From a virus (Duplodnaviria; Heunggongvirae; Uroviricota; Caudoviricetes): a DNA stretch of 29,429 bases. This document shows positions 1 through 26,439 of the stretch, piece by piece. The stretch lies in IMG/VR virus record IMGVR_UViG_2698536379_000013. One strand, 5' to 3'. The first letter of the stretch is position 1; each line of letters starts with the position of its first letter. The position numbers and the translations under genes were made by a program. A model generated the notes under the pieces. That model did no database searches and was not told the DNA's origin. It was given only the letters and a program-made list of their open reading frames with translations.

Positions 1-1288
1 ATCTGTATTGCTGTGAGATATCACTGGTTGCCACACGCCACGCTGAATTACTGATATGTTCAAAATTTACAGACAAAACCTGCGGGGCAGGAATCGACGG
101 GTCTGACTGAACGGCATCAGACATAACACTGACTGAAACCATCGGCTGATTAGGGAATGGTATAGGGAAGTGTCCACTGATAAAGCGGGTCGTGTTTCCT
201 GAAAAAGTGCCAAACTGAACAATATATCCACCTGGTAGCCTGAACCATCCCGAACCAGAAGCGAATGCTCCCATATCCGGTATCTGATTATCTCCTGTGC
301 CCACATCCCTTTTCGCCGCTTCTCCCAAACCAAGGTATGCGAGAAGACCAGCGACATCCTTTCCACTCAAATTAGTCAGCGTATTGTCCAGCGGTTGTTT
401 ACCTGCCAGCGCATTAAGCATTGTCGTGGCAAAGTTCGGATCATTCCCCAACGCCGACGCCAGTTCGTTCAGTGTATCCAGTGCCGCAGGTGCAGAACCT
501 ACCATTGCTGCAATCGCCGATTTCACAAAAGCCGTGGTGGCAATCTGTGTATTGTTGACCGACTGTGCAGCAGTGGGGGCTGTTGGCGTTCCGGTGAGTG
601 CCGGACTCGACAACGGCGCTTTCAGTGCCAGCGCATTGTTAATGGTGGTACTGAAATTCGGATCATTGTTAATGGCTGCGGCTATTTCTTTCAGCGTGTC
701 CAGCGTGGCTGGCGCACCATTAATAAGAGCCGTCAGTGCCGCCTGAACAAACGCGGTGGTCGCAACCTGCGTGGTGTTATTCCCTGCCGCTGGAGTTGGC
801 GCTTTTGGTGTCCCGGTAAACGTCGGACTTTCTTTGGGTGCATACTGTGAATGCGGGTCCGGTGCGGCAAGATGTTTTGCCATCTGATCATCCACGTACA
901 CCTTCAGCTCCAGTACCTTGTCATCCACATACTTGCGGGTTGCCAGCACTACGGCAGGGTCGATTTTCAGGGTGATATTGTCCGTGCTGCTGGTAATCAG
1001 CACCATGCGCACGGTCTGGGTACGCCCGCTGCCTTCAGCCAGTTGCGGCTTATAGCTTTCCGGGCAGTTGCCCACGGCAATCAATGCCCCGGACTCATCA
1101 AACAGGCCCACTTCACGTATCCACCAACCGCCCTCGTTTTCAGGGATCACCTGTTCAGCAATAATCTGGCTGCTGTTCTGCGGGTCGATATAGAGCATAT
1201 TCAGCGCAGCCCGGCGTTTCTCATTTACCAATGCTGTCTGCTTGGCGTCCGGCGTTGGCAATGTTCCGCCGCCATCGCCCACCGCCAT
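1..1288 (-). CDS. Second tail-fibre ORF (H2), partial: region identical to H residues 32-352 followed by a different C-terminal domain; runs off the left edge
   Basis: Hand translation of the minus strand in the H frame of repeat copy 1: TAA at 1334-1336, ATG at 1288 (MAVGDGGG...), then open to position 1 with a novel C-terminus (...GTGDNQIPDMGAFASGSGWFRLPGGYIVQFG...). No recognisable SD before the ATG. Absent from the ORF track because no stop lies inside the window. Confidence 0.45.
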   Translation of the reverse strand, partial: MAVGDGGGTLPTPDAKQTALVNEKRRAALNMLYIDPQNSSQIIAEQVIPENEGGWWIREVGLFDESGALIAVGNCPESYKPQLAEGSGRTQTVRMVLITSSTDNITLKIDPAVVLATRKYVDDKVLELKVYVDDQMAKHLAAPDPHSQYAPKESPTFTGTPKAPTPAAGNNTTQVATTAFVQAALTALINGAPATLDTLKEIAAAINNDPNFSTTINNALALKAPLSSPALTGTPTAPTAAQSVNNTQIATTAFVKSAIAAMVGSAPAALDTLNELASALGNDPNFATTMLNALAGKQPLDNTLTNLSGKDVAGLLAYLGLGEAAKRDVGTGDNQIPDMGAFASGSGWFRLPGGYIVQFGTFSGNTTRFISGHFPIPFPNQPMVSVSVMSDAVQSDPSIPAPQVLSVNFEHISNSAWRVATSDISQQYR

Positions 1289-1334
1289 ATGGGTAATTTT
1301 TAGCGGCACACCGAGCGCGGCGGCGCTGGCAAGT
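319..1334. repeat. Direct repeat copy 1 (1016 bp, identical to 1704-2719)
   Basis: Base-by-base comparison of the two stretches; ORF track shows identical translations for plus-strand ORF pairs offset by exactly 1385 bp. Confidence 0.95.
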
Positions 1335-2766
1335 TATTAAGACCGGGTTCGTCCGTTTTAACTATTCCCCCGTCACCGTATGTAGCCAGTATTCCTGGGT
1401 TTACTCCTTCCCGTGCACTTCCTGCGGCGAGTCCGTCCCCTGTCCATAATTCCATATAGTGTGCATGGTCCAAAATTGTGTGTGGCTGCCAATTAAGCAA
1501 AGCGCGACCAGTATCAATCCCGCGACTGTCATCCCAGCCACGAATAAATTCACCGCGTAAATCAGGCAATTTATTGGTCGGGTAAGCCTTTGCCAGTTCC
1601 GGGTATTCTTCAGCAGAAAAAGCCGCACCGTTGCATTTCAGCCAGCCTGTTGGCGGAGTGGCGGAAGGCCACGGAACAGGCACACCAACGGGTAATGCCG
1701 AACCTTCTCCCAAACCAAGGTATGCGAGAAGACCAGCGACATCCTTTCCACTCAAATTAGTCAGCGTATTGTCCAGCGGTTGTTTACCTGCCAGCGCATT
1801 AAGCATTGTCGTGGCAAAGTTCGGATCATTCCCCAACGCCGACGCCAGTTCGTTCAGTGTATCCAGTGCCGCAGGTGCAGAACCTACCATTGCTGCAATC
1901 GCCGATTTCACAAAAGCCGTGGTGGCAATCTGTGTATTGTTGACCGACTGTGCAGCAGTGGGGGCTGTTGGCGTTCCGGTGAGTGCCGGACTCGACAACG
2001 GCGCTTTCAGTGCCAGCGCATTGTTAATGGTGGTACTGAAATTCGGATCATTGTTAATGGCTGCGGCTATTTCTTTCAGCGTGTCCAGCGTGGCTGGCGC
2101 ACCATTAATAAGAGCCGTCAGTGCCGCCTGAACAAACGCGGTGGTCGCAACCTGCGTGGTGTTATTCCCTGCCGCTGGAGTTGGCGCTTTTGGTGTCCCG
2201 GTAAACGTCGGACTTTCTTTGGGTGCATACTGTGAATGCGGGTCCGGTGCGGCAAGATGTTTTGCCATCTGATCATCCACGTACACCTTCAGCTCCAGTA
2301 CCTTGTCATCCACATACTTGCGGGTTGCCAGCACTACGGCAGGGTCGATTTTCAGGGTGATATTGTCCGTGCTGCTGGTAATCAGCACCATGCGCACGGT
2401 CTGGGTACGCCCGCTGCCTTCAGCCAGTTGCGGCTTATAGCTTTCCGGGCAGTTGCCCACGGCAATCAATGCCCCGGACTCATCAAACAGGCCCACTTCA
2501 CGTATCCACCAACCGCCCTCGTTTTCAGGGATCACCTGTTCAGCAATAATCTGGCTGCTGTTCTGCGGGTCGATATAGAGCATATTCAGCGCAGCCCGGC
2601 GTTTCTCATTTACCAATGCTGTCTGCTTGGCGTCCGGCGTTGGCAATGTTCCGCCGCCATCGCCCACCGCCATATGGGTAATTTTTAGCGGCACACCGAG
2701 CGCGGCGGCGCTGGCAAGTTTCGCCGCGCCAATATCCGTCAGCAGGGTATAAAATTTTGTGCTCAT
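1300..2766 (-). CDS. Tail fibre protein (P2 gpH-like) with tail-collar-type C-terminal domain
   Basis: 488 aa, ATG start. N-terminus (MSTKFYTLLTDIGAAKLA...MAVGDGGG...ESYKPQLAEGSGRTQTVRMV) matches recalled P2 H N-terminal region; Ala/Thr-rich repeats; C-terminal PWPSATPPTGWLKCNGAAFSAEEYPELAKAY...LPDLRGEFIRG is a tail-collar-like motif. Confidence 0.9.
   Translation of the reverse strand: MSTKFYTLLTDIGAAKLASAAALGVPLKITHMAVGDGGGTLPTPDAKQTALVNEKRRAALNMLYIDPQNSSQIIAEQVIPENEGGWWIREVGLFDESGALIAVGNCPESYKPQLAEGSGRTQTVRMVLITSSTDNITLKIDPAVVLATRKYVDDKVLELKVYVDDQMAKHLAAPDPHSQYAPKESPTFTGTPKAPTPAAGNNTTQVATTAFVQAALTALINGAPATLDTLKEIAAAINNDPNFSTTINNALALKAPLSSPALTGTPTAPTAAQSVNNTQIATTAFVKSAIAAMVGSAPAALDTLNELASALGNDPNFATTMLNALAGKQPLDNTLTNLSGKDVAGLLAYLGLGEGSALPVGVPVPWPSATPPTGWLKCNGAAFSAEEYPELAKAYPTNKLPDLRGEFIRGWDDSRGIDTGRALLNWQPHTILDHAHYMELWTGDGLAAGSAREGVNPGILATYGDGGIVKTDEPGLNNLPAPPRSVCR
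1704..2719. repeat. Direct repeat copy 2 (1016 bp, identical to 319-1334)
   Basis: Same as copy 1; period 1385 bp, unique spacer 1335-1703 (369 bp). Confidence 0.95.
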
Positions 2767-3368
2767 GGATTCACTCTCATTGTGTCAATAACATGGACCG
2801 CCCCGCCTTCATGCGCGGTGCCGCCGGAAATAATTGTTTCGTTGATATACGGATAGATCGTGATTTCTTCGCCAAGATAGCTGGCGGCCCCCACCCAATG
2901 CGGACCGCTGGTCTGCAGATTGATGGACATGCCGATCATGTGACGGCTACATGGTTTGGCATCGCTTATCAGCCGCTCAAGTTCCAGATAGGTATCTTCA
3001 GTGATGCCCTGGTCCTGCACGCCGATATCCAGGCGAAACGTGCCCGGTGTTTCTCCGGTCTGCCACCACTCAATAATGCGGATCAGGAATCCGAACGGTT
3101 CCACCACCCGCCGCACGGCACTGGTAGTTCCTTTATGCTGATGAATATAAAAAGCATCCTTCACTACCTGGCGTTTGACGCTTTCTGTCCAGCCCTCGTC
3201 CCAGCGATCCACAGAGAACGCCCAGGCGAGATAAGGCAGGAAGCTGACCGGACAGGTAGCCGGATTCCACAAGTCACGCAGCGGCACCTGCAGATCAGAA
3301 ATCCCGCTACAGGTTTGCGCCAGTCGGCGCTCCAGTGAAGTTGAACCCGGTGGCAGCAGACTATTCAT
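2763..3368 (-). CDS. Baseplate protein (P2 gpI-like)
   Basis: 201 aa, ATG start, overlaps H start by 4 nt; position between J and H; N-terminal LLPPGSTSLERRL resembles recalled P2 gpI. Confidence 0.8.
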   Translation of the reverse strand: MNSLLPPGSTSLERRLAQTCSGISDLQVPLRDLWNPATCPVSFLPYLAWAFSVDRWDEGWTESVKRQVVKDAFYIHQHKGTTSAVRRVVEPFGFLIRIIEWWQTGETPGTFRLDIGVQDQGITEDTYLELERLISDAKPCSRHMIGMSINLQTSGPHWVGAASYLGEEITIYPYINETIISGGTAHEGGAVHVIDTMRVNP

Positions 3369-4269
3369 CCGTTCCTCCGTTGGTTACGCTCCACTGCGTA
3401 CATGATGCCGCCTGTGTTTTGTTCAGGACCACATCCGCCAGCGGAGAAGCCAGTTCCACACGTTGAACACCCTCAACATGCAGAGCAGCAAAGATGGCGC
3501 TACGGCGAATATCCCGACCAAGCCTCGTCTGGCTGGCAATGTACTTCTGCAGACTGGCTTTTGCCGCTGCCATTACCGGCTCTGCTTCCGGTCCCGGATA
3601 GAGAAAAATGGTGGCTTCCACGCGATACGGGATGATTTCTGCGCTGCGAACCGTAAGACGGTCAGCCACCGGGCGGACGTTCTCACTGTTCAGAGCTTTT
3701 TCCACCACGTCCAGCAGGTCTTTTTCTGCAGTTCCATCGCCTTCGCGGCTAAGGACAGTCAGCACCACCTCTGCAGGTGCCGGGCTGGTTGCACTGGCAT
3801 CCGCCACCCGACCGTCGGCGCTTCGGGCATGAAATTCATAAGCTGCAGTTGGCCCCGCAACTGAAAGCCCTTCAAAGGCTGCAGGCACACGCAGGCGTAA
3901 CGCTTCATCGCTTTCCATCACAGCTGCAACGGGCGGCACAGCGTCATTATCAGCAGGCGTCACCGTCAGGCGTTTCACGTTGTAGTTGGCGGCGAGCTGG
4001 TCCAGATCGCCCCCTATGGCATAAGCCACCATCACCGCCTGCGCGGCTTCGTTAATGCGCTGGCGCAGAAGCAACTCACGGTAAGCATTCTCCTGCAACA
4101 ATTTGGTGACGGGTTCAGATTCCAGTTCCAGCGTGCGGATCACTGCTTCCTGCTCATCTTTCGGATGAAGCGCCACAAATTCTGCCTTGCGTTCGGCAAG
4201 CAGCGTCTCAAAGTCCGGCACATCCACAATCTGCGGCGCAGGCAACTGCGAAAGGTCAATCACTGCCAT
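3361..4269 (-). CDS. Baseplate assembly protein J (P2 gpJ-like)
   Basis: Strong resemblance to recalled P2 gpJ (IDLSQLPAP..., LELESEPVTKLL, RSADGRVAD, GRDIRRSAIFAALHVEGVQRVELASPLADVVL). Start set to ATG 4269 (MAVIDLSQ) with GGAG 6 nt upstream; the ORF-track start at 4308 is a GTG extension. Confidence 0.9.
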   Translation of the reverse strand: MAVIDLSQLPAPQIVDVPDFETLLAERKAEFVALHPKDEQEAVIRTLELESEPVTKLLQENAYRELLLRQRINEAAQAVMVAYAIGGDLDQLAANYNVKRLTVTPADNDAVPPVAAVMESDEALRLRVPAAFEGLSVAGPTAAYEFHARSADGRVADASATSPAPAEVVLTVLSREGDGTAEKDLLDVVEKALNSENVRPVADRLTVRSAEIIPYRVEATIFLYPGPEAEPVMAAAKASLQKYIASQTRLGRDIRRSAIFAALHVEGVQRVELASPLADVVLNKTQAASCTQWSVTNGGTDE

Positions 4270-4615
4270 TCTCTGCTCCTGTTGATACGGAAAGGGAAAC
4301 AGGCACACCGTTATTACGCCGCCCGGTCAGCTCCACCACCATTGAACCGTCAAAATTGCTGTTAATGGTGATGGAATCCAGCGTCAGCCGTGGCTCCCAG
4401 CGACTCAGCGCCACATACACTGCCGACATGACCTGCAGGCGTAATGCCGGATTTTGTGGCTGGTCTATCAGTGCCGACAGCAGGGAACCATATTCCCGAC
4501 GGGCAATGCGGCTACCCTGCGGCGTCAGCAAAATGTCCCGCACCGACTGGCGCAGATGATCAATATCAGTAATGGCTTTACCGCTGGTATTGTTCATCCC
4601 GCTATAAAGCGTCAT
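4256..4615 (-). CDS. Baseplate assembly protein W (gp25-like)
   Basis: 119 aa, ATG start; resembles recalled P2 gpW (DIDHLRQSVRDILLTPQGSRIARREYGSLL...DQPQNPALRLQ). Confidence 0.85.
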   Translation of the reverse strand: MTLYSGMNNTSGKAITDIDHLRQSVRDILLTPQGSRIARREYGSLLSALIDQPQNPALRLQVMSAVYVALSRWEPRLTLDSITINSNFDGSMVVELTGRRNNGVPVSLSVSTGAENGSD

Positions 4616-5190
4616 ACCGGGCCTCCGGTTGTGTCGCCGCCTTTCAGGACGTCAGTATGCTGATGCGCATCAACCACGATCCCGTTAGAACTCATCGCTC
4701 CGCCGCCCTGGGTAACGCCACCATTGATCACCACTTCGCTGTTAATGCGCGTGCGGTCAGCCTCCAGTACAAACTCACTGGTTTTCATGGTGATGTTGTC
4801 AGCGGCCTCAATGACCATTGATTTGATGCCCCTGACATACCAGCGCCCGGTAGTGGGTTCGTATTCAAACCAGCCGCCGTCAGGATGTTCTGTCACGCAG
4901 GCGTCTGCCGACGTCGACGGTGGTGCGAACTGATTCGAATAGACAGCGGGCAGCGCAAAGGCAGTTTCCAGATTGCCGCCCAGACTCAGCAGCACCACCT
5001 GCTCACCTTCCGATGGTCGCCACCATGTGCGGGCATTCCCGGCACGCAGCGTCAGCCAGCTGATCCAGTTGGTTTCAAGCTCGCCCGTTTTCACCCGGCA
5101 AAGCCAGTTTTCCCGGTCCACTTCGGTGACTACACCAGTGCGGATCAGGTTGGTGATAAGGCGCATGATTTCGGTTAGTTGTGCGTTCAT
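4612..5190 (-). CDS. Baseplate spike / assembly protein V (P2 gpV-like)
   Basis: Aligns by eye to recalled P2 gpV from MNAQLTEIMRLITNLIRTG (LIRTGVVTEVD, RTWWRPSEGEQVV). Start set to ATG 5190; the track extension to 5298 is not homologous. Confidence 0.85.
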   Translation of the reverse strand: MNAQLTEIMRLITNLIRTGVVTEVDRENWLCRVKTGELETNWISWLTLRAGNARTWWRPSEGEQVVLLSLGGNLETAFALPAVYSNQFAPPSTSADACVTEHPDGGWFEYEPTTGRWYVRGIKSMVIEAADNITMKTSEFVLEADRTRINSEVVINGGVTQGGGAMSSNGIVVDAHQHTDVLKGGDTTGGPV

Positions 5191-5236
5191 AGGGTTAGGT
5201 TGCACGGACCTTGAATCTATGGCATCAATACGTCCT

Positions 5237-5254
5237 TGTGTGGTAAATGACACA
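5237..5254 (-). promoter_or_regulatory. TGT-N12-ACA dyad, candidate Ogr-type late promoter element upstream of V
   Basis: TGTgtggtaaatgacACA; centre lies 55.5 bp upstream of the V ATG, the same spacing as the dyad upstream of P. The P2 late-promoter dyad consensus is from memory. Confidence 0.45.
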
Positions 5255-5285
5255 AATACAATTCCAATCAAAGAAAGGTAAAAGA

Positions 5286-5816
5286 ATGAGCCATCCAATT
5301 GATTATTACGCTATAGAAGAACACGCAAGAATAATTGAGCAATTATGCTGTTCATCTGAATTTTATTTACAGCGTATATATTCCACACAGAAAGTATATG
5401 ATGGTTCTATAGTAACTGAATTTGAAATGGAGGAGTTATCGTACAACGGATGGTTGGAATATACCATTAGCAACAATCTTATTAGCCTTTGTACAAAACT
5501 ACGAATTCTCCAAGACACTAGTGAACATGAGTGGAACCCAGATTACTCACCTGAGAAAGAAGCATTTGAAGAACATGAAAATATACTTTTTGTTATAGAT
5601 GGTCATGTTAAAGATTCTATACGCGAATGCTGCAATAAAATTATTCACGCATTAAGTTTTGAGTTAACAAAAAAGACCGGCAAAAATGGAATAAAATATT
5701 GGGACGGTTCTATTATTGCTTCTGGGGTTCAAAACAAAAAAAACTGGAAAATTAAAATAGACCTTTTCCCTTTTTGCCAAAGCATAAAAAGTTATTTAAG
5801 TTTATTAAGAGCGTAA
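5286..5816 (+). CDS. Hypothetical protein (AT-rich insert between V and S), function unknown
   Basis: 176 aa from ATG 5286 (MSHPIDYY...), preceded by gaaagg SD-like sequence and a sigma70-like -10 (TACAAT 5257-5262). Opposite strand to the tail operon; visibly AT-rich; no recognisable motif. Confidence 0.6.
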   Translation: MSHPIDYYAIEEHARIIEQLCCSSEFYLQRIYSTQKVYDGSIVTEFEMEELSYNGWLEYTISNNLISLCTKLRILQDTSEHEWNPDYSPEKEAFEEHENILFVIDGHVKDSIRECCNKIIHALSFELTKKTGKNGIKYWDGSIIASGVQNKKNWKIKIDLFPFCQSIKSYLSLLRA

Positions 5817-5821
5817 ACATT

Positions 5822-6274
5822 CTAATTTTTCATCAATAAATACTTTAAAAGTAAATCTCTTACTTCATTTTCAGTATGTTCATTTAAACCCAGCAATTTT
5901 CGGGATGGATACTTAATGACTCCCCCCTTTGGACTGACGCGATCGCGCAGACCGTAGTGATGAACACGGGCAATACGCTGTACCTTACCTTCAAACTGTA
6001 CGCTGGCAGAATCCGCGCTGGCGGCAGTTCTCAGGTATTTTGTGGTGCGCAGCTTTGCAAACATCTGACGTTTGATGCGCCCCTTCTTGCTGCGTGCTGT
6101 TACCCTGCGCGGCTCATAACTGCTGCCATCTGGATTGCGCTGCATCCTGATATTCTGCTGCTGTGTCCGGCGCAGTTCCTGCGCCAGCTGGCGCATCATT
6201 CGGCTTCTTGCGGCTGGTTCCAGATTCGCCAGCAAAGCACTCAGCCAGTCGTCCACCTTCTGCAGTTCAGCCAC
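5822..6274 (-). CDS. Tail completion / virion morphogenesis protein (P2 gpS-like)
   Basis: 150 aa in the conserved position between R and V. Start codon is GTG at 6274, so the start is uncertain. The last ~25 codons lie in AT-rich sequence. Confidence 0.65.
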   Translation of the reverse strand: MAELQKVDDWLSALLANLEPAARSRMMRQLAQELRRTQQQNIRMQRNPDGSSYEPRRVTARSKKGRIKRQMFAKLRTTKYLRTAASADSASVQFEGKVQRIARVHHYGLRDRVSPKGGVIKYPSRKLLGLNEHTENEVRDLLLKYLLMKN

Positions 6275-6698
6275 GTTTCACCGTCCACATTTCTTCAGGT
6301 TCATCGGGTTCCGCTACTGCTTCAACGCTCGACACACTTCCGTCAGTGCTGACCAGCACACGTTCCGTCAGTTGCAGGTTGAGGCTGATATCACAGACAT
6401 CGTTGCGCAGAATATCCACCTCAAAGGTGAATAACTTTTCCCGTAACGCCGGATTATTGATGGCATCGGGCTGGTTATCACGCAGCCACAGCAAAACCGG
6501 GGCCATCAGCAGATTCTGGTCGCCGCTGAAATCCTCAATCACCACGTTGAGGGTATAACGGTACTCCCATGACATGGAGCTGGCCCCCGTGGCAACCAGC
6601 GAACCGTTATCCACAAACAGATGCAGCTTATCCGGGTTATTGCGGACATAAGGCACTGCTTTATTGAGGGCGTGGCGCAGGGATTGTGGTTTGTTCAC
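6267..6698 (-). CDS. Tail completion protein R (P2 gpR-like)
   Basis: Resembles recalled P2 gpR (KPQSLRHALNKAV..., FVDNGS, RYTLNVVIEDFSGD, WLRDNQPD). Start set to GTG 6698 with AGGAG 7 nt upstream; the track start at 6719 is TTG. Confidence 0.75.
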   Translation of the reverse strand: MNKPQSLRHALNKAVPYVRNNPDKLHLFVDNGSLVATGASSMSWEYRYTLNVVIEDFSGDQNLLMAPVLLWLRDNQPDAINNPALREKLFTFEVDILRNDVCDISLNLQLTERVLVSTDGSVSSVEAVAEPDEPEEMWTVKRG

Positions 6699-6951
6699 TG
6701 TTTCGCTCCTGACACGCAATAATCATGTCCACTTTGTCTGCACAGACCGCCCAGGCGGCCTCCGTTTCATCCAGCAATGCGTTCAGATCACCGTTAGTGC
6801 GCGGCGCTGCCTGCTCCAGCCGACACGGCGTCACTCGCGGACAACCACTGACGGTAAGCTGCACCTCCGGTGAGTGCCGGACGTTCCCGCAGCCGGATAA
6901 TGTCAGCAGGCAAAGGAGTATCAGCCCAGCGGCGTAAATCCTCGTTCTCAC
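6661..6951 (-). CDS. Outer-membrane spanin lipoprotein (LysC/Rz1-like), overlapping lysB and R
   Basis: N-terminal signal peptide with lipobox LSGC; ORF embedded out of frame in lysB 3-prime end, typical Rz1 architecture. GTG start, so start is uncertain. Confidence 0.55.
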   Translation of the reverse strand: MRTRIYAAGLILLCLLTLSGCGNVRHSPEVQLTVSGCPRVTPCRLEQAAPRTNGDLNALLDETEAAWAVCADKVDMIIACQERNSEQTTIPAPRPQ

Positions 6952-7222
6952 GTTTCAGTTCCTCGATCCGGTGTTGTCGTTGTCTCAGCAGCGCGCTGGT
7001 CTGTTCTGCTTCGGCATAGAGCCGCGCCTGCTCCCGGTTATTGGTTTCAGCCAGAATGGACAGACTGATCAGCTGGCTATTTTTCTTCGTTAGTTCGTGC
7101 GCTTTACTTTTCAGCGCCGCGCGCTGCGTTTCGATGGTGTGGCTGGCGCTGTTAAGCCGCCACGACTGCCAGCCCAGCGCAACGAGTGCCAGCGCCGCCA
7201 CTACCGCCAGCGCACGCGTCAT
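6794..7222 (-). CDS. Inner-membrane spanin (LysB/Rz-like)
   Basis: 142 aa, N-terminal TM helix (ALAVVAALALVALGW) then charged coiled-coil-like region; ATG overlaps the endolysin stop (ATGA). Confidence 0.75.
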   Translation of the reverse strand: MTRALAVVAALALVALGWQSWRLNSASHTIETQRAALKSKAHELTKKNSQLISLSILAETNNREQARLYAEAEQTSALLRQRQHRIEELKRENEDLRRWADTPLPADIIRLRERPALTGGAAYRQWLSASDAVSAGAGSAAH

Positions 7223-7734
7223 AATCCAGCTCCTTTAAGGCACCAGGCCATCTCCCGCGCACGGCGGTTATCCAGCCCCTGATTAAACACACCTTTCACA
7301 TAAACCCAGCGCGGCAACTGTCGGCACGCTTCTGCCCAGCGCCGCTGATTGAGCAATTTCACCAGCGTAGAACTGCAGGCATTGCCCGTTCCCACGTTGA
7401 AGGCAAACGACACCGTAGCGTCATATACCTTCTGCGGCGGCTGTTGCTTCACACACCTTTCCAGCGCCCGCTCCACACGCAGCACGTTGGAAATAAGCCC
7501 TTCTGCTGCCTGTCGTTCCGTGATTGTTTTGCCGGGAATGACGCCCGACGTATTTCCAATGCCGTCGGTCCAGACACCCGCGCTGCACTGATACGGCTGC
7601 AGACGACAACCTTCGTAATCGGCAATCAGTTTCAGCCCCTCCACGGAGGTGTGAAGCTGCTGAAACCCCGGCAGCGTGGCAGCAATAGCCAGCACGGCCC
7701 CGACAAGGCAGCGTTTAACGATTGATGGATTCAT
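7219..7734 (-). CDS. Endolysin, lysozyme family, with SAR-like hydrophobic N-terminus
   Basis: 171 aa; GGGAGG SD; lysozyme-like motifs (EGLKLIADYEGCRL...DGIGNTSG); N-terminal Gly/Ala-rich hydrophobic segment LVGAVLAIAATLPG. Confidence 0.85.
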   Translation of the reverse strand: MNPSIVKRCLVGAVLAIAATLPGFQQLHTSVEGLKLIADYEGCRLQPYQCSAGVWTDGIGNTSGVIPGKTITERQAAEGLISNVLRVERALERCVKQQPPQKVYDATVSFAFNVGTGNACSSTLVKLLNQRRWAEACRQLPRWVYVKGVFNQGLDNRRAREMAWCLKGAGL

Positions 7735-7930
7735 AGTCCTCCCGCGAAATCTGCCCGTCGCGCAGAAGCTGGTAGGCTTTGTGTTTGTAGTACCAGTTGA
7801 TAGCCAGCATCAGCACACCAATCATCAGGCCGCCCAGCGTTGAGGCATCCTTGATGGACAAATCGCCCAGCCAGGCCAGCACGACGGCGATGCAATACGT
7901 GATAAAGGCGCTGATTCGCTCAAGCGTCAT
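7715..7930 (-). CDS. Holin (small, two predicted TM segments, pinholin-like)
   Basis: 71 aa, ATG start, two hydrophobic segments and a charged C-terminus, immediately upstream of the endolysin. Confidence 0.65.
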   Translation of the reverse strand: MTLERISAFITYCIAVVLAWLGDLSIKDASTLGGLMIGVLMLAINWYYKHKAYQLLRDGQISREDYESINR

Positions 7931-7933
7931 AAT

Positions 7934-8137
7934 TCAGTCCCATAGCTGGACGGTCTGCACGGTGGTGGTTGTCGGAATGTCCGGCAGCTCCACCTGCAGC
8001 CCGTGAGGTAAAAAGGGGCCGTATTCGGCAAGCCCCGGATTTGCCTTCAGTACCTGCTCCGTGACACCCTGCGTGCGCCCGTAATGACGCCAGCAAAGTG
8101 CGTCCACCGTGTCATACTGATGCGCACGCACTTTCAT
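7934..8137 (-). CDS. Tail protein X (P2 gpX-like, LysM-like)
   Basis: 67 aa; close resemblance to recalled P2 gpX (DTVDALCWRHYGRTQGVTEQVLKANPGLAEYGPFLPHG...ELPD). Confidence 0.85.
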   Translation of the reverse strand: MKVRAHQYDTVDALCWRHYGRTQGVTEQVLKANPGLAEYGPFLPHGLQVELPDIPTTTTVQTVQLWD

Positions 8138-8601
8138 CAGATAAGCTCCACTGTGCAGTGCGGCGCATCCTGCACCCGGCTGATGGCCCAGCGGGCGTCA
8201 CGCCATAAATCACCGCTTGCTTCCGCCAGTTCCTCGCCTCGCTTCGCACCGGATGCCGTGGCGTCATAGTCCTGGTAACGTTCGTTGAGCATGGCGCGTG
8301 CCCAGCAGTAAACCGCGTTGAAATAGTGCTGAATGCGCTCGCTTTTGCCGTCCAGTTGTTCCGCCGGGACTTCTGCCAGCGAGGCATACCCCAGCATCTG
8401 CTGGCGTCTGCGAAACTCATACAGCTCTGCGTTGACCTCCGAAATTGCCGACAGCGCAACCTGCTTTAAACGCGGCTGCGTCACCGTGCCGTCAGTGCGC
8501 ATGACACTGCGAAACTCCGACAGGTCCACATCAGGCCAGAACGGCGTATTTCTGATGATTTCCGCCTGTTCCGGTGCCTGTTCTGGCGCAACAAACTTCA
8601 T
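8137..8601 (-). CDS. Head completion / stabilisation protein (P2 gpL-like)
   Basis: Resembles recalled P2 gpL (EFRSVMRTDGTVTQPRL, YQDYDATASGAKRGEE, TVELI end). Start set to ATG 8601 with GGAG SD; the GTG at 8664 is an alternative. Confidence 0.75.
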   Translation of the reverse strand: MKFVAPEQAPEQAEIIRNTPFWPDVDLSEFRSVMRTDGTVTQPRLKQVALSAISEVNAELYEFRRRQQMLGYASLAEVPAEQLDGKSERIQHYFNAVYCWARAMLNERYQDYDATASGAKRGEELAEASGDLWRDARWAISRVQDAPHCTVELI

Positions 8602-8696
8602 GCTGCTTTCTCCTGAAATAAAGGGCGGTGGACGGGGTTTTGATGTGGCAGTGCCTTTCGCCACCCCGTGCCGCCCGTGCGCGGGGGCACGTTCTG

Positions 8697-9347
8697 TCAG
8701 CGGCTGTCATTGCGCAGTCTGCGCTCCAGCTGCTGTTTGTCTTTTTTCACGCCACAGCGGGGATCGAGCTGTAACGCATGGTTGAGATGATTAAGGGCGG
8801 AAGCCGGATTACTTTCACTCAGGACAGCGCCAATCGCTTTATGCAGACGCGCCCGTGACTGGTCCGGCATATCCAGACCGTCTGTCAGCTCCAGCGTCTG
8901 CAGCAGCAGATCGACATCAAAGCCGGTAGTGGCAAGCATTGCGCTCTGCGCTGCGTCTGCCATTTCCTCTGCCAGCACGGTCTGCACGTTGCGGTTACCT
9001 AGCGGCATCACCCAGCCATGACGCAGGGCATGACGCCCGATCTCCAGCGCTCCGACATAATCTCCGGCATCAATGCGCCACAGCATCACGTACATCAGCA
9101 CGTCATCCTGTTGAGCGCCTCCGGCAGCCAGGACACCCTCCGCCCAGGCGGCGTATTTCGGCAGCAGCTCCACCTTGATTTCCGCTTTTTTGACCGTGGA
9201 CTGAACGCCCTTGAGACGGCGGCGGTCTTCTGCCAGTTGCAGCAGCATCAGGTCATAGCCCGACGCGTGGCGAACGCTGCCGCCCTCGCGGGCGGCCTGT
9301 TCAGCCTGAACGCGCAGGCGATGCTGCCGTGCGGGACTCAGGCTCAT
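8697..9347 (-). CDS. Terminase endonuclease (small) subunit (P2 gpM-like)
   Basis: 216 aa, ATG start with GGAG SD, in the conserved position between L and N. Confidence 0.8.
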   Translation of the reverse strand: MSLSPARQHRLRVQAEQAAREGGSVRHASGYDLMLLQLAEDRRRLKGVQSTVKKAEIKVELLPKYAAWAEGVLAAGGAQQDDVLMYVMLWRIDAGDYVGALEIGRHALRHGWVMPLGNRNVQTVLAEEMADAAQSAMLATTGFDVDLLLQTLELTDGLDMPDQSRARLHKAIGAVLSESNPASALNHLNHALQLDPRCGVKKDKQQLERRLRNDSR

Positions 9348-9350
9348 GGT

Positions 9351-10409
9351 TTACGCTCCGGTTTCTGCTGCGGCGGCGCTGAAGTCGCCAATCTGGATGT
9401 TTTCCACCAGTGCGGCGCAGCGGTAGTCCTCAACCACATAGGCTTCGTTAACGGATTCAAAATTTTCAATCCGGTCACGTTTCGGGTTGTCGATAACCGA
9501 ACGGCGGCGGGTGTCTTCCTGCCAGTAAATGGACAGGTTATCCAGACGGGTGATCAGCAGCGCATTCGGCGGGAAGAACGGCGCATGCACGGCCTGCAGG
9601 CCACCCATGCGTTTCTGACTGATGATCATATCGGCAGCCAGTTTTTCACTGTTTTCCTGCTCTTTGTTGACCAGCGGGAAATACTTGTCAGACAGCAGCT
9701 CACGACCGCAAATCACCACCAGATCGTCATCGTCCTGGTAGACCACGTCGATAAGCTCATTGACCGCATCCATCACCACGGCGTCCAGGTTGGCATATTC
9801 GCCACCTTTCCCGACTTTCACCGCACCCGGTGTGGTTTCACCGCCCGTGGTGGTGCTGCCCATGACGTGATCCGGTGCATCCTCACGGATTTTCTGCAGC
9901 CAGCCTTTGTTCACATCCTGCAGCAGCGGGTTTTCGCTACGGTTGGAGGTTTTCGCACGCTTCACGCCGTTAAAGCCGATCATGATGCGGTCCAGTGCCT
10001 GGCGTTTCACGATGGCGTCACGGATACGCACCTGGAAATCCTGAAACTTCGCCCACAGGTCCAGCTTCGCGTAGGTCAGCACCGTGTCAAAGTTGGTCTG
10101 TTCGCATTTGTATTCCACATCGATCATCAGCGTCGGATCGACAGGTTCACGCTCTTTCGCGGTGGTGTCAGTGGTTCCGGCAATGGTGCTGCCAACACCC
10201 AATCCAAGCAGCTGACCGGACTGCTCAGTCACTGGCGTGACGTTAATCAGCGTCAGGAAAGCGGCGGACTGCTGGATCTGGTCTTCCAGCGTCTGCTGCA
10301 CAGACGGCTCTACGGTGAACTTGCTGGACAGTTCCTCAACTGCCACACCGTTCAGACGCGCCAGTTGCTGCAGGTAAGCGTTAAAAGCAAAACGGGTATT
10401 CTTCTTCAT
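9351..10409 (-). CDS. Major capsid protein precursor (P2 gpN-like)
   Basis: 352 aa; extensive match to recalled P2 gpN (TRFAFNAYL, KFTVEPSVQQTL, DLWAKFQDFQVRIRDAIVKRQALD, GFNGVKRA, VGKGGEYANLDAVVMDA, ISQKRMG, ENLSIYWQ). Confidence 0.95.
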   Translation of the reverse strand: MKKNTRFAFNAYLQQLARLNGVAVEELSSKFTVEPSVQQTLEDQIQQSAAFLTLINVTPVTEQSGQLLGLGVGSTIAGTTDTTAKEREPVDPTLMIDVEYKCEQTNFDTVLTYAKLDLWAKFQDFQVRIRDAIVKRQALDRIMIGFNGVKRAKTSNRSENPLLQDVNKGWLQKIREDAPDHVMGSTTTGGETTPGAVKVGKGGEYANLDAVVMDAVNELIDVVYQDDDDLVVICGRELLSDKYFPLVNKEQENSEKLAADMIISQKRMGGLQAVHAPFFPPNALLITRLDNLSIYWQEDTRRRSVIDNPKRDRIENFESVNEAYVVEDYRCAALVENIQIGDFSAAAAETGA

Positions 10410-10425
10410 TGGGTTTTATGCTCCA

Positions 10426-11259
10426 TCAGCAATTGGTCAGAGTGTCAGCGGGGGCGTTGCCGCCTGTTGCACGCTGGCGGTAGTCCTGGCGGCTGTCTTC
10501 ATGACTCAGCTTATCCACCAGTTCGTTAAAGGCGGTTTGCTGCTCCTGCAGAGCAGTCTCCAGCTCAGACAGGCGTTCTTCCTGCTCAGACAGGGATTTT
10601 TCGGTGCGCGTGCTCAGGTTCTGCTGCTCAGTGGCGACCAGTTCCACGGCCTTATGCACATCAGAGAACCGGACGTCATCGGACTGCTCTTTTTTGGTAA
10701 ACAGCGCCGTGACGCGGGCAAACAGGGACGGCTTGTCCTCCTGGATTTCTTCCAGTTCGATCACCGTTTCCTCTGCAGCGGTAAAAAGATTGGCAGGATT
10801 CTGCTTGCGGTTTGCCAGCGGGTTATGGGCTGCACTGGCGCTGAATGTCAGCATTTCCGTACCCAGACTGGCGGGATCATCAGTGGCAGCCAGGCCGACC
10901 AGGTAGGCTTTGCCCGTATCAGCAAACTTCGGGCTGACTTCCATAGAGGTGAATAATTTCTGGCCTTTTTTCACCAGTTCCACCAGGGACTCCGTTGGCT
11001 CAACGTCGGCATACAGTGCCATCTTGCCTGCCAGCGGACCTTCCGCGATTTCTTCAGCAAACAGCGCCGTCACCTTGCCGTAGCGGTTAAACGTGCTGTC
11101 CGGCAGATAAGACTTAATGTGCTCAAGGTTAATCAGCGCGGTATACACCGCCGGGTTGTAGCTGGCTGCCATCTGTTCCAGCCATTCACGCTGGATTTCG
11201 CGTCCGTCGGTAGTGGCACCTTCCACCCCGATGCGAAAACGCTTTGCTTTCACTGTCAT
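10426..11259 (-). CDS. Capsid scaffolding protein (P2 gpO-like)
   Basis: 277 aa; matches recalled P2 gpO (FRIGVEGATTDGR, INLEH, YLVGLAATDDPASLGTEML, SDDVRFSDVHKAV, ATGG...LTNC end). Confidence 0.9.
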   Translation of the reverse strand: MTVKAKRFRIGVEGATTDGREIQREWLEQMAASYNPAVYTALINLEHIKSYLPDSTFNRYGKVTALFAEEIAEGPLAGKMALYADVEPTESLVELVKKGQKLFTSMEVSPKFADTGKAYLVGLAATDDPASLGTEMLTFSASAAHNPLANRKQNPANLFTAAEETVIELEEIQEDKPSLFARVTALFTKKEQSDDVRFSDVHKAVELVATEQQNLSTRTEKSLSEQEERLSELETALQEQQTAFNELVDKLSHEDSRQDYRQRATGGNAPADTLTNC

Positions 11260-11337
11260 GAGCCGTGCTCCGTTAGAAAAAACTTACTGGAGCCTTATGG
11301 TTGCGGTGATGGGGGCAGTGAAACAATGCGCGGTATT

Positions 11338-11355
11338 TGTACCGACAACCACACA
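11338..11355. promoter_or_regulatory. TGT-N12-ACA dyad in the O/P divergent intergenic region (candidate Ogr-type late promoter element)
   Basis: TGTaccgacaaccacACA; centre 55.5 bp upstream of the P ATG. Confidence 0.5.
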
Positions 11356-11401
11356 AACCGCAGGCGGGGAAAGCCTTCATTCAAGGCTGTAGGTTTGTGC
11401 C

Positions 11402-13168
11402 ATGAACACCACACTGACACCCGCAGATCTCGATCCCCGTCGGCAGGCCATGCTGCTGTACTTTCAGGGATACCGCGTAGCCCGCATTGCTGAAATGCTG
11501 GGCGAGAAAGTTGCAACCGTTCACAGCTGGAAAAAACGCGACAAGTGGGGTGACTATGGGCCGCTGGATCAGATGCAGCTCACCACCGCCGCCCGCTACT
11601 GCCAGCTCATTATGAAGGAGCACAAAGAAGGGAAAGATTTCAAAGAAATTGACCTGCTGGCGCGCCAGTCGGAGCGCCACGCGCGGATCGGCAAGTTTAA
11701 CAATGGCGGCAACGAAGCCGACTTAAACCCTAACGTCGCCAACCGCAACAAAGGGCCGCGCCGTCAGCCGGAAAAGAATGTTTTCACCGATGAACAGATT
11801 GAGAAGCTGGAAGAAATCTTCCATTCCTCCATGTTCAACTACCAGCGCCACTGGTGGGAAGCCGGAAAAACCAATCGCATCCGCAACCTGCTGAAGTCTC
11901 GCCAGATCGGCGCGACCTTTTACTTTGCCCGTGAAGCCCTGATTGACGCCCTGCTGACCGGACGTAACCAGATTTTCCTTTCCGCCAGTAAGGCACAGGC
12001 CCACGTCTTTAAGCAGTACATCATCGACTTCGCCAAAGAAGTCGAGGTGGAGCTGAAAGGCGATCCGATGGTGCTTCCTAACGGGGCCACGCTTTACTTC
12101 CTCGGCACCAATGCCCGCACGGCCCAGAGTTACCACGGCAACCTGTATCTGGATGAATATTTCTGGATACCGAAATTCCAGGAGCTGCGCAAAGTGGCTT
12201 CCGGTATGGCTATTCACAAAAAATGGCGACAAACCTATTTTTCCACGCCATCCAGCCTGACACACAGTGCTTATCCGTTCTGGTCCGGTGCGCTGTTCAA
12301 CCGAGGGCGCAACAAAGCCGATAAGGTGGACATCGACCTGTCCCACAGCAATCTGGCCCCCGGCCTGCTGTGCGCAGACGGGCAGTACCGCCAGATAGTC
12401 ACCGTGGAAGATGCGGTGCGCGGCGGCTGTAACCTGTTCGACCTTGACCAGTTGCGCATGGAGTACAGCCCGGACGAATACCAGAACCTGCTGATGTGCG
12501 AGTTCGTGGACGATCTCGCGTCCGTGTTCCCGCTCAGCGAGCTGCAGGCGTGCATGGTGGACAGTTGGGAAGTCTGGACCGACTTTCATGCACTGGCCCT
12601 GCGCCCGTTTGGCTGGCGCGAAGTGTGGATCGGATATGACCCGGCGAAAGGTACGCAGAACGGCGACAGCGCCGGATGCGTGGTGGTGGCGCCGCCAGCC
12701 GTGCCGGGCGGTAAGTTCCGCATTCTTGAGCGTCACCAGTGGCGCGGAATGGACTTCCGCGCCCAGGCTGACGCCATCAAAAAACTGACCGAACAGTACA
12801 ACGTGACCTATATCGGTATCGACTCAACCGGCGTTGGTCACGGGGTTTACGAGAACGTGAAAGCGTTTTTTCCTGCCGTCCGGGAGTTTGTCTACAACCC
12901 CAACGTTAAAAACGCCCTGGTACTCAAGGCCTACGACATTATCAGCCACCGCCGTCTGGAGTTTGACGCCGGACACACCGACATAGCGCAGTCCTTTATG
13001 GCAATCCGTCGCGCCACCACCGCCAGTGGCAACCGCCCGACCTATGAAGCCAGCCGCAGCGAAGAAGCCAGCCACGCCGATCTGGCCTGGGCAACGATGC
13101 ACGCACTGTTTAACGAACCGCTGCAGGGCGAATCCGCCAATACCAGCAATATTGTGGAGATTTTTTGA
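11402..13168 (+). CDS. Terminase ATPase (large) subunit (P2 gpP-like)
   Basis: 588 aa; extensive match to recalled P2 gpP (NRNKGPRRQP, IRNLLKSRQIGAT, GRNQIFLSASKAQAHVFKQYII, GTNARTAQSYHGNLY, KKWRQTYFSTPSS, GWREVW, HQWRGMDFRAQA, SRSEEASHAD). Confidence 0.95.
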   Translation: MNTTLTPADLDPRRQAMLLYFQGYRVARIAEMLGEKVATVHSWKKRDKWGDYGPLDQMQLTTAARYCQLIMKEHKEGKDFKEIDLLARQSERHARIGKFNNGGNEADLNPNVANRNKGPRRQPEKNVFTDEQIEKLEEIFHSSMFNYQRHWWEAGKTNRIRNLLKSRQIGATFYFAREALIDALLTGRNQIFLSASKAQAHVFKQYIIDFAKEVEVELKGDPMVLPNGATLYFLGTNARTAQSYHGNLYLDEYFWIPKFQELRKVASGMAIHKKWRQTYFSTPSSLTHSAYPFWSGALFNRGRNKADKVDIDLSHSNLAPGLLCADGQYRQIVTVEDAVRGGCNLFDLDQLRMEYSPDEYQNLLMCEFVDDLASVFPLSELQACMVDSWEVWTDFHALALRPFGWREVWIGYDPAKGTQNGDSAGCVVVAPPAVPGGKFRILERHQWRGMDFRAQADAIKKLTEQYNVTYIGIDSTGVGHGVYENVKAFFPAVREFVYNPNVKNALVLKAYDIISHRRLEFDAGHTDIAQSFMAIRRATTASGNRPTYEASRSEEASHADLAWATMHALFNEPLQGESANTSNIVEIF

Positions 13169-14202
13169 TGGGAAAGAGTAAGAAGAACCGCGCTGCGGCG
13201 ACGAAACAGATCCAGCTTAAAAGTCAAACTACAGCCGAAGCATTCAGCTTCGGCGATCCCGTTCCTGTTCTGGACCGCCGAGAACTGCTGGATTATGTGG
13301 AATGCGTACAGATGGACCGCTGGTATGAGCCGCCCGTCAGCTTTGACGGACTGGCGCGCACCTTCCGCGCTGCCGTGCATCATAGTTCCCCGATTGCAGT
13401 AAAGTGCAACATTCTGACCAGCACCTACATCCCTCACCCGCTGCTCAGCCAGCAGGCTTTTTCGCGTTTTGTGCAGGACTATCTGGTTTTTGGTAACGCC
13501 TACCTGGAGAAACGCACGAACCGCTTCGGTGAAGTTATCGCCCTTGAGCCTGCACTGGCAAAATACACCCGACGCGGGTTAGACCTGGATACCTACTGGT
13601 TTGTGCAATACGGTATGACAACCCAGCCGTATCAGTTCACGAAAGGCAGCATTTTTCATCTGATGGAACCGGATATTAATCAGGAGATCTACGGCCTGCC
13701 CGGTTATCTTTCTGCCATTCCGTCAGCCCTGCTCAACGAGTCCGCCACGCTGTTCCGTCGCAAGTATTACATTAACGGCAGTCATGCGGGCTTTATCATG
13801 TACATGACCGATGCCGCGCAAAACCAGGAGGATGTGAACAACCTCCGCAATGCGATGAAAAGCGCCAAAGGTCCAGGCAACTTCCGCAACCTGTTTATGT
13901 ACTCGCCTAACGGCAAAAAAGACGGGCTTCAGATCATCCCATTGTCAGAAGTCGCGGCGAAGGATGAGTTTTTGAATATCAAAAATGTCAGCCGCGACGA
14001 CATGATGGCTGCGCACCGCGTGCCGCCGCAAATGATGGGGATTATGCCTAATAATGTTGGAGGGTTTGGGGATGTGGAGAAGGCCAGTCGCGTATTTGTA
14101 CGTAATGAATTAACGCCCTTGCAAAAAAGGCTACAAGAGCTGAACGACTGGCTGGGCGAAGAAGTGATTAAATTTACGCCCTATATTCTTTCAGAAGAAT
14201 AA
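13168..14202 (+). CDS. Portal protein (P2 gpQ-like)
   Basis: ATG 13168 overlaps the P stop (TGATG) with GGAGA SD; 344 aa in the conserved P-Q arrangement. Confidence 0.9.
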   Translation: MGKSKKNRAAATKQIQLKSQTTAEAFSFGDPVPVLDRRELLDYVECVQMDRWYEPPVSFDGLARTFRAAVHHSSPIAVKCNILTSTYIPHPLLSQQAFSRFVQDYLVFGNAYLEKRTNRFGEVIALEPALAKYTRRGLDLDTYWFVQYGMTTQPYQFTKGSIFHLMEPDINQEIYGLPGYLSAIPSALLNESATLFRRKYYINGSHAGFIMYMTDAAQNQEDVNNLRNAMKSAKGPGNFRNLFMYSPNGKKDGLQIIPLSEVAAKDEFLNIKNVSRDDMMAAHRVPPQMMGIMPNNVGGFGDVEKASRVFVRNELTPLQKRLQELNDWLGEEVIKFTPYILSEE

Positions 14203-14210
14203 TTCCGAAC

Positions 14211-14909: not shown

Positions 14910-15019
14910 GTCAATTACTCCTCCCTATGAAAAAAATGAGTTGAAAAATTGAATATTCACGACTTAAAAAGCTAGCCTATTTAACACCATAATTTCATTA
15001 ATTCAACCATGAGCGCGCG

Positions 15020-15038
15020 CTCGTATCCCCGCCACGCC
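15020..15038 (-). other. Putative cos (cohesive end) site, P2/186-like
   Basis: Minus-strand GGCGTGGCGGGGAtacgag; first 13 nt match the recalled 186 cos overhang GGCGTGGCGGGGAAAGCAT. Adjacent perfect palindrome GAGCGCGCGCTC at 15011-15022. Confidence 0.4.
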
Positions 15039-15082
15039 TGCCCGCTTTATGTAGTGGTTTTCATGCGCCTGCATGACATAAG

Positions 15083-15107
15083 CAAAAGCCCGCCATTCCT
15101 AGCGGGC
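15083..15107 (-). terminator. Rho-independent terminator-like hairpin ending the SOS operon
   Basis: Stem gcccgc/gcgggc (15088-15093 and 15102-15107), 8-nt loop, followed on the minus strand by a T-run (A-run 15084-15087 on plus). Confidence 0.5.
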
Positions 15108-15198
15108 CTCAGCTAAAACGATCCTCAAACGATCATGCGGATTCATGCGGCATAGACATGCACAATCGCCAAAGCGGGCATCGAGACTTTTTGGAAAA

Positions 15199-15810: not shown

Positions 15811-15858
15811 TGCGCCCCCACCTGCAAAAATAGTATTCCATTATAAGCTAATACATTT

Positions 15859-25074: not shown

Positions 25075-25171
25075 ACGTCTATTGTCGTCCAGTGAGAATT
25101 GCTGAGAACTACGAGTTATGGCACCCTGAATGAGACCCACTAAGAAGGGTCCAAAAACCGAGGGTCCCAAA

Positions 25172-26401: not shown

Positions 26402-26439
26402 GTATCAGAATAGCTAATATAATCCTGAAGGTAAAGAAA

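Follow-up and report, generated by a model that had tools for sequence, protein, structure and literature searches.

The duplicated tail-fibre sequence at the left end of the window, by which the whole analysed stretch of 29,429 nucleotides is meant, overlies a locus that, judged by its sequence, is a pix/gix-type invertible host-range switch of a P2-like (Cartapus/LF82-type) prophage, and hence belongs to a well-known type of invertible switch and does not represent a new kind. The exchange of its two receptor-binding cassettes, A and B, would normally proceed by site-specific inversion through a serine recombinase predicted to be encoded outside the window, and not by homologous recombination. 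On this switch lies a head-to-tail duplication of 1,385 bp, extending from codon 17 of the tail-fibre gene H to codon 123 of cassette A, and its most likely origin, with a probability of roughly 45%, is a false duplication during assembly from mixed inversion states. The features concerned are the following, in window coordinates:

1705 to 1730, plus strand: Din/Pin-type crossover site 1, TTCTCCCAAACC AA GGTATGCGAGAA, with the core AA at 1717-1718
320 to 345, plus strand: Din/Pin-type crossover site 2, with the same sequence and the same (direct) orientation as site 1
1704 to 2720, minus strand: repeat copy 2, the constant part of H from codon 16/17 to codon 354, with the whole 26-bp crossover site included
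319 to 1335, minus strand: repeat copy 1, identical to copy 2
1330 to 1341, no strand: novel joint 1335/1336, where codon 123 of cassette A meets codon 16/17 of H
1336 to 1703, minus strand: fragment of cassette A, a receptor-binding cassette of the gp37-like collar type, of whose 165 codons the first 123 are present
1 to 318, minus strand: cassette B, a gp53-like receptor-binding cassette for the C-terminus, of which the first 106 codons are present
1300 to 2766, minus strand: tail-fibre gene H as it stands (488 aa), comprising the PF12571 domain, the constant shaft, the truncated cassette A and 12 out-of-frame codons, with its stop in copy 1
2721 to 2766, minus strand: codons 1-16 of H (MSTKFYTLLTDIGAAK), occurring once and outside the repeat
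2763 to 3368, minus strand: baseplate gene I (P2 gpI), which lies immediately upstream of H, overlaps the start of H and anchors the locus in the V-W-J-I-H module

With respect to the switch, a 26-bp dix site lies at the boundary between the constant and the variable part of H, as is characteristic of Din-family switches. Comparison with the dix-family sites tabulated in PMC3241671 shows that this site is identical to the pixL site of the E. coli prophage e14 at 23 of 26 positions, and that its inner half together with the core is identical to both pixL and pixR. A scan of the window allowing up to 7 mismatches found no dix-like sites beyond the two direct ones. In the relatives L001-L004, an inverted site identical to pixR is located about 1.5-2 kb downstream of H, which corresponds to a position left of window position 1. 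Next to H, relatives carry a silent inverted cassette, two tfa chaperone genes and a gene for a serine recombinase (Resolvase, PF00239), and in nearly all relatives compared a Resolvase-family gene adjoins H. In terms of the window, the positions of the two chaperone genes and of the recombinase gene in relatives correspond to DNA immediately beyond its left end. At the 26-bp crossover site the constant stem of H would be joined to either cassette A or cassette B.

Profile comparisons assign A to the Collar and B to the gp53-like_C family, as expected of a Din-family switch with two cassettes, and strains 1332KP and FG92-1 carry this pair as the opposite arms of a single segment. The alternative receptor-binding cassette that had been postulated downstream of H in a preliminary description of this DNA is real, being cassette B, the partner arm of A in relatives. 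B is 100% identical to silent or expressed cassettes of other E. coli prophages, and by homology only the final 26 nt or so of its natural gene fall outside the window. For A, identities of 98-99.7% are reached with cassettes of unrelated prophages and of plasmids, and P2-like, Mu-like and lambdoid prophages share cassettes of this kind. Of the two, both lie in direct orientation here, which is atypical; in relatives they are inverted relative to each other.

Up to the crossover site the window is 99.95% identical over 14 kb to the E. coli LF82 prophage Cartapus. Escherichia phage Cartapus (LF82 prophage 4; Peduoviridae, Elveevirus) has an H stem 100% identical to that of the window and shares its gene order as well as the moron between V and S; it has a single H gene (473 aa) with another cassette pair, followed by a Gin-like invertase, and no duplication. 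The P segment of e14 with its invertase Pin (StfP/StfE, pixL and pixR), which PinE, PinQ and PinR all invert, resembles the locus not only in pixL and, through the partner site of the relatives, in pixR, but also in its gp53-like or collar cassettes, each accompanied by a tfa chaperone gene, beside a serine recombinase gene. Unlike in e14, the constant part here is P2 gpH within a complete P2-like prophage, and the window has two direct sites and a duplicated 1-kb stem, with the inverted site and the invertase predicted to lie outside it. In the G segment of Mu with Gin and the C segment of P1 with Cin, a constant 5' part of the fibre gene is joined to one of two inverted 3' cassettes, by which host range is switched. 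The same switching logic at a 26-bp dix site is found here; however, the phage backbone differs, the core dinucleotide is AA where it is GA in gix, and a tandem copy of the constant part is absent from the Mu and P1 systems.

The duplication itself is evident from the identity of positions 319-1335 and 1704-2720, i.e., 1017 nt with 0 mismatches at a period of 1385 (2 modulo 3). The exact repeat given in the preliminary description (319-1334 and 1704-2719) is correct, and identity extends one base further. This is the only long repeat in the window, which contains no N or other ambiguous bases. It spans the constant part of H from codon 17 to the 26-bp crossover site, and the low-coordinate end of copy 2 coincides with the inner half-site of the crossover site. 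That the left boundary of the repeat is a Pin/Gin-type crossover site had been missed before. Identical head-to-tail copies with a single novel joint are what a tandem duplication produces. However, the short homology that is usual, albeit not obligatory, at the joint of such duplications is lacking, as 0 nt are shared at the blunt joint 1335/1336, with a possible orphan A at 1336. The joint falls after 368 nt of cassette A and after 47 nt of H, away from the crossover site. A joint made by the invertase can be ruled out, since dix-like sequence is absent at 1335/1336 with up to 7 mismatches allowed, and an IS-mediated joint is unsupported, IS sequence being absent there. In an unrelated contig (L017) an IS3 element is inserted 2 nt from the joint position, which is treated as coincidence or local target preference.

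The effect on H follows from the reading frames. The gene carries an N-terminal Phage_tail_fib domain (PF12571; E = 3e-65, residues 1-150), as does P2-type H, and takes the position of H in the V-W-J-I-H baseplate/fibre module, the relatives being annotated in the same order. As had been proposed, it lies on the minus strand (2766 to 1300, 488 aa) with a unique N-terminus of 16 codons outside the repeat, and terminates inside copy 1 in a shifted frame, the stop at 1300-1302 being 12 codons past the joint. The collar domain does not, as had also been proposed, fill the spacer exactly: its 123 codons represent a shortened cassette, since natural H-A genes have a further 42, with which the conserved ...ETRPRNIAFNYIVRAA end is lost. 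H thus has neither a complete C-terminal receptor-binding domain nor a tfa chaperone gene behind it; the tfa gene belonging to cassette B would lie outside the window. By comparison with these natural genes, the collar domain expressed here is incomplete and probably without function.

The preliminary description of copy 1 is confirmed in all three of its points, namely a TAA ahead of it in the H frame (TAA TAA at 1339-1334), the lack of a Shine-Dalgarno sequence at the first in-frame starts (GTG 1309 and ATG 1288), and a continuation into another C-terminus, gp53-like_C (PF21882), beyond the window edge. The upstream TAA TAA and the missing Shine-Dalgarno sequence at the first GTG or ATG rule out copy 1 as a separately translated gene. 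Copy 1 matches only positions 17-150 of the PF12571 profile, and any product started within it would miss at least the first 24 residues of the baseplate-binding domain. Both fibre reading frames are hence broken, the first by the truncation of cassette A, the second by the lack of codons 1-16 and of any start. Removal of one period in silico results in an open H-B of 460 codons, which matches the intact H of strain FG92-1 at 98.7% identity. A promoter and terminator scan of positions 1-3400 gave no signals on the minus (H-coding) strand beyond those expected from shuffled sequence.

In turn, a 201-nt query across 1335/1336 found no place with at least 80% coverage in 5,426 complete E. coli genomes, its halves being matched separately. 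An exact 36-mer and 24-mer across the joint were absent from IMG/VR, the GTDB representative genomes and the JGI metagenomes, and the 488-aa product from the public protein sets in which it was looked up exactly. When proteins were searched with the cassette and the new tail of 12 aa as query, the best 120 matches all lacked the tail. With no second occurrence in any collection searched, the joint is private to this sequence and does not represent a recurrent architecture.

According to the preferred reading, i.e., false duplication during assembly, cultures of the lysogen would hold both inversion states, stem joined to A and stem joined to B. Two such sequences, sharing the stem and diverging past the crossover site, would not merge cleanly, and both versions might have been laid end to end, as happens to heterozygous haplotypes in "heterotype" false duplications. 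In that case the locus would in truth consist of one H gene and an ordinary A/B invertible segment, and the tandem layout itself would be no mechanism at all. In favour of this reading is the observation that the two stem copies bear exactly the two alternative inversion states, which would be a coincidence otherwise. At P2-like prophage loci, clonal cultures of E. coli have been found to contain both orientations (PMC4272514), and false duplication of divergent alleles is a documented class of assembly error, in the heterotype form of which two versions of a locus, alike over part of their sequence before they diverge, end up next to each other and look like paralogues (PMC9516828). In addition, the independent metagenome contigs L006 and L007 break at this crossover site or 48 nt beyond it. 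The perfect identity of the two copies, the blunt joint without microhomology, which shortens a conserved fold element and disrupts the two H frames, and the absence of this joint and of the 488-aa product from all collections searched also point to an artefact.

However, the heterotype class was described for diploid heterozygosity and usually comes with a gap, single-scaffold false duplications usually flanking one (PMC9516828), whereas here inversion states of a clonal culture would be involved and neither a gap nor an N run separates the copies. Gapless joining could still have removed a boundary between the copies despite the absence of N. Furthermore, a de Bruijn graph assembler cannot make a joint that is found in no read, and therefore a blunt interior joint normally means that some molecules or chimeric reads had it. 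Also the position of the joint away from the crossover site, where assemblies break, and the nature of the locus as a natural hot spot of real rearrangements argue against an artefact. Misassembly, which the preliminary description had listed among its options, is a live one.

A genuine and very recent tandem duplication with a subsequent inversion has a somewhat less than even chance of being the correct explanation. With the segment in the A state, illegitimate recombination or unequal sister exchange would have joined codon 123 of A to codon 17 of H, and the invertase would then have turned round the stretch from the second crossover site to the inverted site outside the window, bringing B behind the second stem. 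The outcome would be a three-site locus, observed in a fibre-defective "off" state, from which the loss of one 1-kb repeat by RecA-dependent deletion would lead back to an intact H-B, while inversion between site 1 and the inverted site or sites could still yield an intact H-A or H-B. A unique joint within a contig normally requires read support, the window contains no Ns, and the layout is exactly the one predicted by a duplication and one inversion given the natural A/B segments; collapsing one period opens H-B. The locus is, moreover, highly rearranged in nature, with crossover-site truncations, foreign inserts and the IS3 next to the joint position in the unrelated assembly. On the other hand, RecA-independent duplications usually have a few bases of homology at the joint, where there are none here. 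That the joint is a singleton over all collections searched, that it coincides with a heterogeneous locus, which points to an artefact, and that the arrangement disables the expressed fibre also speak against a genuine duplication. If the duplication is real, it must be recent, as had been stated before.

It is rather unlikely that a real duplication turned a two-state switch into a three-site, four-state one. If so, two states would express an intact H-A or H-B, and the other two, including the captured one, a truncated fibre, i.e., a heritable but reversible "fibre-off". The window would then show an intermediate caught in the act, in which multi-cassette inversion loci gain sites by duplication. 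Such multi-site loci are known from Min of p15B and from the P2-like locus of EPEC E2348/69, which has three repeats and four states (PMC4272514) and to that extent supports a genuine duplication; in these, however, cassettes are gained each behind its own site, without a duplicated constant stem or a truncated cassette.

That the arrangement is the footprint of the acquisition of a new fibre tip is improbable. The stem and the A fragment would have come from another P2-like or Mu-like phage and landed beside a resident H-B through a single homologous crossover on the upstream side and a single illegitimate join at codon 17 of H. The sharing of cassettes among P2-like, Mu-like and lambdoid prophages, at the identities given above, would be compatible with this, as would the near-identity of the window phage to the LF82 prophage up to the crossover site with a different cassette set beyond it. 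However, the two stem copies are identical at 1017 of 1017 positions although the stems of relatives differ by up to 8%, and therefore both copies derive most simply from one genome. The acquired cassette would also be truncated and without its chaperone gene, and since individual phages already contain A and B as a natural pair, a foreign donor need not be assumed.

Finally, an evolved one-way host-range switch, with a silent cassette kept in direct orientation and swapped in by homologous recombination between the 1-kb repeats, is very improbable: recombination would indeed yield an intact fibre gene (H-B), and to that extent the swap claimed in the preliminary description stands, but the evolved one-way switch is effectively refuted, since the collar fibre as expressed is cut short and probably without function, so that the arrangement is a broken state with no functional "before", and since the architecture occurs in no other genome searched. 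The lineage also already has a dedicated reversible switch (crossover sites here, invertase in relatives).

The main value of the locus thus lies in a caution, namely that phase-variable tail-fibre loci yield duplicated gene fragments in assemblies or, transiently, in genomes, and that such fragments are open to misreading as "tandem fibre genes" or new switching mechanisms. The positive result is a corrected annotation, comprising a pix-type site in a Cartapus-like H, the A/B cassette pair and, as the sequence stands, a truncated expressed fibre. A real duplication would add a small example of how extra crossover sites arise and would leave the current view of host-range switching unchanged.

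With respect to the fold of cassette A, the tip of the long tail fibre of T4 (gp37, PDB 2XGF) aligns with it at the start of the collar, at the HxH motif and at the very end (NIAFNYIVR). Compared with gp37 the cassette is much shorter (165 aa), and the terminal segment is missing from the window copy.

Positions 319-1335 and 1704-2720 share all 1017 nt without a single mismatch, one base more than the 1016-bp perfect direct repeat of the preliminary description, with an abrupt loss of identity at both ends. The copies recur at a period of 1385 nt, not divisible by three, and self-comparison of the entire window, which contains no N bases, revealed no further long repeat. On the minus strand, a 488-codon ORF (2766 to 1300) coding for the tail-fibre protein gpH (PF12571 at residues 1-150, Collar domain at residues 361-408) starts with 16 unique codons, runs through copy 2 of the repeat (1704-2720) and the 368-nt spacer, and enters copy 1 (319-1335) out of frame, where it stops after 12 codons. 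The unique N-terminus and the frameshifted stop described previously are thus borne out, and so are the stop codon before copy 1 in the H frame, where a TAA TAA directly precedes it, and the missing Shine-Dalgarno sequence, none being present at the first in-frame GTG (1309) or ATG (1288) of this copy. Codons 1-16 and a start site are missing from the second H copy, so that neither fibre gene is intact. When exactly one period is removed, an unbroken frame of 460 codons results, with 98.7% identity to the intact H-B protein of FG92-1 (468 aa); only the last 8 codons are off-window. The earlier observation is confirmed, and its interpretation is partly supported.

Features of the fibre locus in the window:
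320-345 and 1705-1730, crossover site, TTCTCCCAAACC AA GGTATGCGAGAA
1336-1703, cassette A, alternative C-terminus of H (T4 gp37-like collar), 99.7% identical to collar cassettes of several E. coli genomes and plasmids
1-318, cassette B, alternative C-terminus of H, 100% identical to 'gp53-like' cassettes of other E. coli genomes

The crossover site is identical at 23 of 26 positions to pixL (TTCTCCCAAACC AA GGTTTTCGAGAG), which is given along with pixR (TTCTCCCAAACC AA CGTTTATGAAAA) in a table of Din-family sites (PMC3241671), and a pixR-identical site is found in relatives in inverted orientation, adjoining the recombinase gene. The '1016-bp repeat' comprises the constant stretch of H, which extends from codon 17 as far as the crossover core, together with the inner half-site; since this half-site is common to every cassette, identity stops exactly at 319/1704. 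These two are the only dix-like sites in the window and have direct orientation, and an inverted partner site and the invertase would lie left of position 1. Downstream of H, all close relatives examined have a tail-fibre assembly gene, then a second assembly gene and a short fibre C-terminus ORF (both on the other strand), and lastly a Resolvase-family recombinase, the same arrangement as in the Gin/Cin/Pin invertible host-range switches. By function and site sequence the locus is a Din-family invertible tail-fibre switch, of which the window itself shows the crossover site and the cassettes only.

In 1332KP, cassette A is the expressed and B the silent inverted arm of one segment, and in FG92-1 B is the expressed arm and an A-like cassette the silent one; therefore, the window has in tandem the two states of a single invertible segment. 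Contrary to what had been assumed, the collar domain is not complete, since natural H-A genes extend for 42 more codons past ...KTDEPGL and end in ...GTETRPRNIAFNYIVRAA, whereas the window has in their place NNLPAPPRSVCR and a stop, the out-of-frame reading of copy 1. In the structure of T4 gp37, the C-terminal end of the chain comes back to the collar. The full cassette A aligns to the gp37 fibre tip (PDB 2XGF) at the start, the HxH motif and the very end (NIAFNYIVR), so that the missing piece is a conserved part of the fold. Judged from its sequence, H as expressed is probably non-functional, lacking this conserved end.

A single junction, 1335|1336, is non-natural; there, codon 123 of cassette A meets H codon 16/17 with zero shared bases, base 1336 being either a cassette A variant or an orphan nucleotide. 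A dix-like joint was considered and rejected, as the junction does not resemble such a site. The joint is present in none of 5,426 complete E. coli genomes, in which each half of a 201-nt probe finds its match apart from the other, and was not found in IMG/VR, GTDB species representatives or JGI metagenomes; likewise, the 488-aa product occurs in no public gene catalogue searched, and the novel tail in 0 of the 120 best cassette-A homologues. The joint is a private event and not an architecture. In a Mu-like prophage contig (GCA_003604775.1, QZLR01003455.1, 1485-1781), cassette A is split by an IS3-type element (end TGATCTTACCCAGCAATAGTGG..., HTH_Tnp_1 ORF) inserted 2 nt off the position of this joint, either by coincidence or owing to a locally preferred AT-rich target (CTTAAT).

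With respect to its origin, a false and a real recent duplication both fit, and the sequence alone has no power to separate them. We tentatively favour, at a probability of about 45%, a false duplication in the assembly, in which stem|A and stem|B, sharing the constant stem of H and then diverging, were laid end to end, which gives exactly the observed layout. Both orientations of such segments coexist in clonal cultures (PMC4272514), and heterotype false duplications, of which this would be the bacterial analogue, are an established class of assembly error (PMC9516828). Assemblies do struggle here, as is seen in two independent JGI metagenome contigs of this phage type: one (L006, 1-1017) breaks exactly at the pix-type site in H and the other (L007, 1-1065) 48 nt past it. 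Above all, the two copies bear the two inversion states, and the blunt joint, perfect identity, broken frames and uniqueness point in the same direction. However, there is no gap between the copies, the joint lies away from the crossover site, and graph assemblers invent no joint absent from all reads.

A real tandem duplication that spans H codon 17 to codon 123 of cassette A, with a later ordinary inversion between the second and the off-window inverted site, reproduces the layout just as exactly and is a serious contender, if at somewhat less than even odds. Real rearrangements cluster at this locus. They include the IS3 insertion close to the joint position in another assembly and, among genomes with an identical gpI (the baseplate gene directly upstream of H), stems that end at the crossover site, a glycosyltransferase gene placed past the stem, and missing invertases. 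Two of these genomes (L019, 6603-7661; L021, 6603-8836) have an H that breaks off at the crossover site after 352-353 aa. What comes next is either the CI repressor and integrase directly, through a large deletion, or a 360-aa ORF, weakly matching Glyco_transf_9, between stem and inverted cassette; the crossover site seems to serve repeatedly as a breakpoint in real rearrangements. If the duplication is real, symbolic bookkeeping indicates that three-site inversions could still give H-A and H-B in intact form; the state seen would then be fibre-defective. RecA would collapse such a duplication over time. Acquisition of a foreign stem+A fragment is unlikely, as the two stems are identical at 1017/1017 positions while those of relatives differ by up to 8%, and the evolved recombinational one-way switch proposed in the preliminary description is highly improbable given the truncated cassette A, the unique joint and the dedicated inversion switch already present.

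P2-like prophages with invertible segments have been described before (PMC4272514). In function and site sequence the closest known system is the e14 P segment; here the switch sits on a P2 backbone of Cartapus type. No known designed system matches the duplication itself; what we describe is an already-known switch type bearing a private structural aberration or artefact, and its novelty is low.

The window is a P2-like prophage that carries V-W-J-I-H along with genes for lysis, head, terminase and replication, a CI repressor and an integrase. Its counterpart in E. coli LF82, the published phage Cartapus (Peduoviridae, Elveevirus), is 99.95% identical across 14.1 kb (7 mismatches; window 1704-15816) up to the crossover site and carries a wholly different cassette set beyond, a clean case of whole-segment exchange at a dix site between otherwise near-identical phages. 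Between the baseplate gene V and the tail gene S, a 189-aa ORF on the opposite strand (5247-5816, +) without match in Pfam or PADLOC codes for a protein found identically in LF82 and many short metagenome contigs. Relatives harbour unrelated cargo in this slot (DUF2971, AAA_21+RloB, an SMC/ABC-like ATPase with DUF4435, AIPR), apparently a variable cargo/defence hot spot in P2-like phages. Past the portal gene, two opposite-strand ORFs (14211-14909 and 15199-15810, both −), one a DUF4145 protein with a weak PADLOC match to PD-T7-4 (E = 1e-6) and the other (203 aa) without PADLOC match, probably mark a second cargo slot, also present in LF82. The P2-type integrase (22877-23902) is not the only one in the window: beyond it, within 25130-29400, lie a different tyrosine integrase (25130-26401) and, after this, a DUF6119 protein of 603 aa and a protein carrying a peptidoglycan-binding domain, and a second integrative element seems to reside in tandem at the same attachment region.
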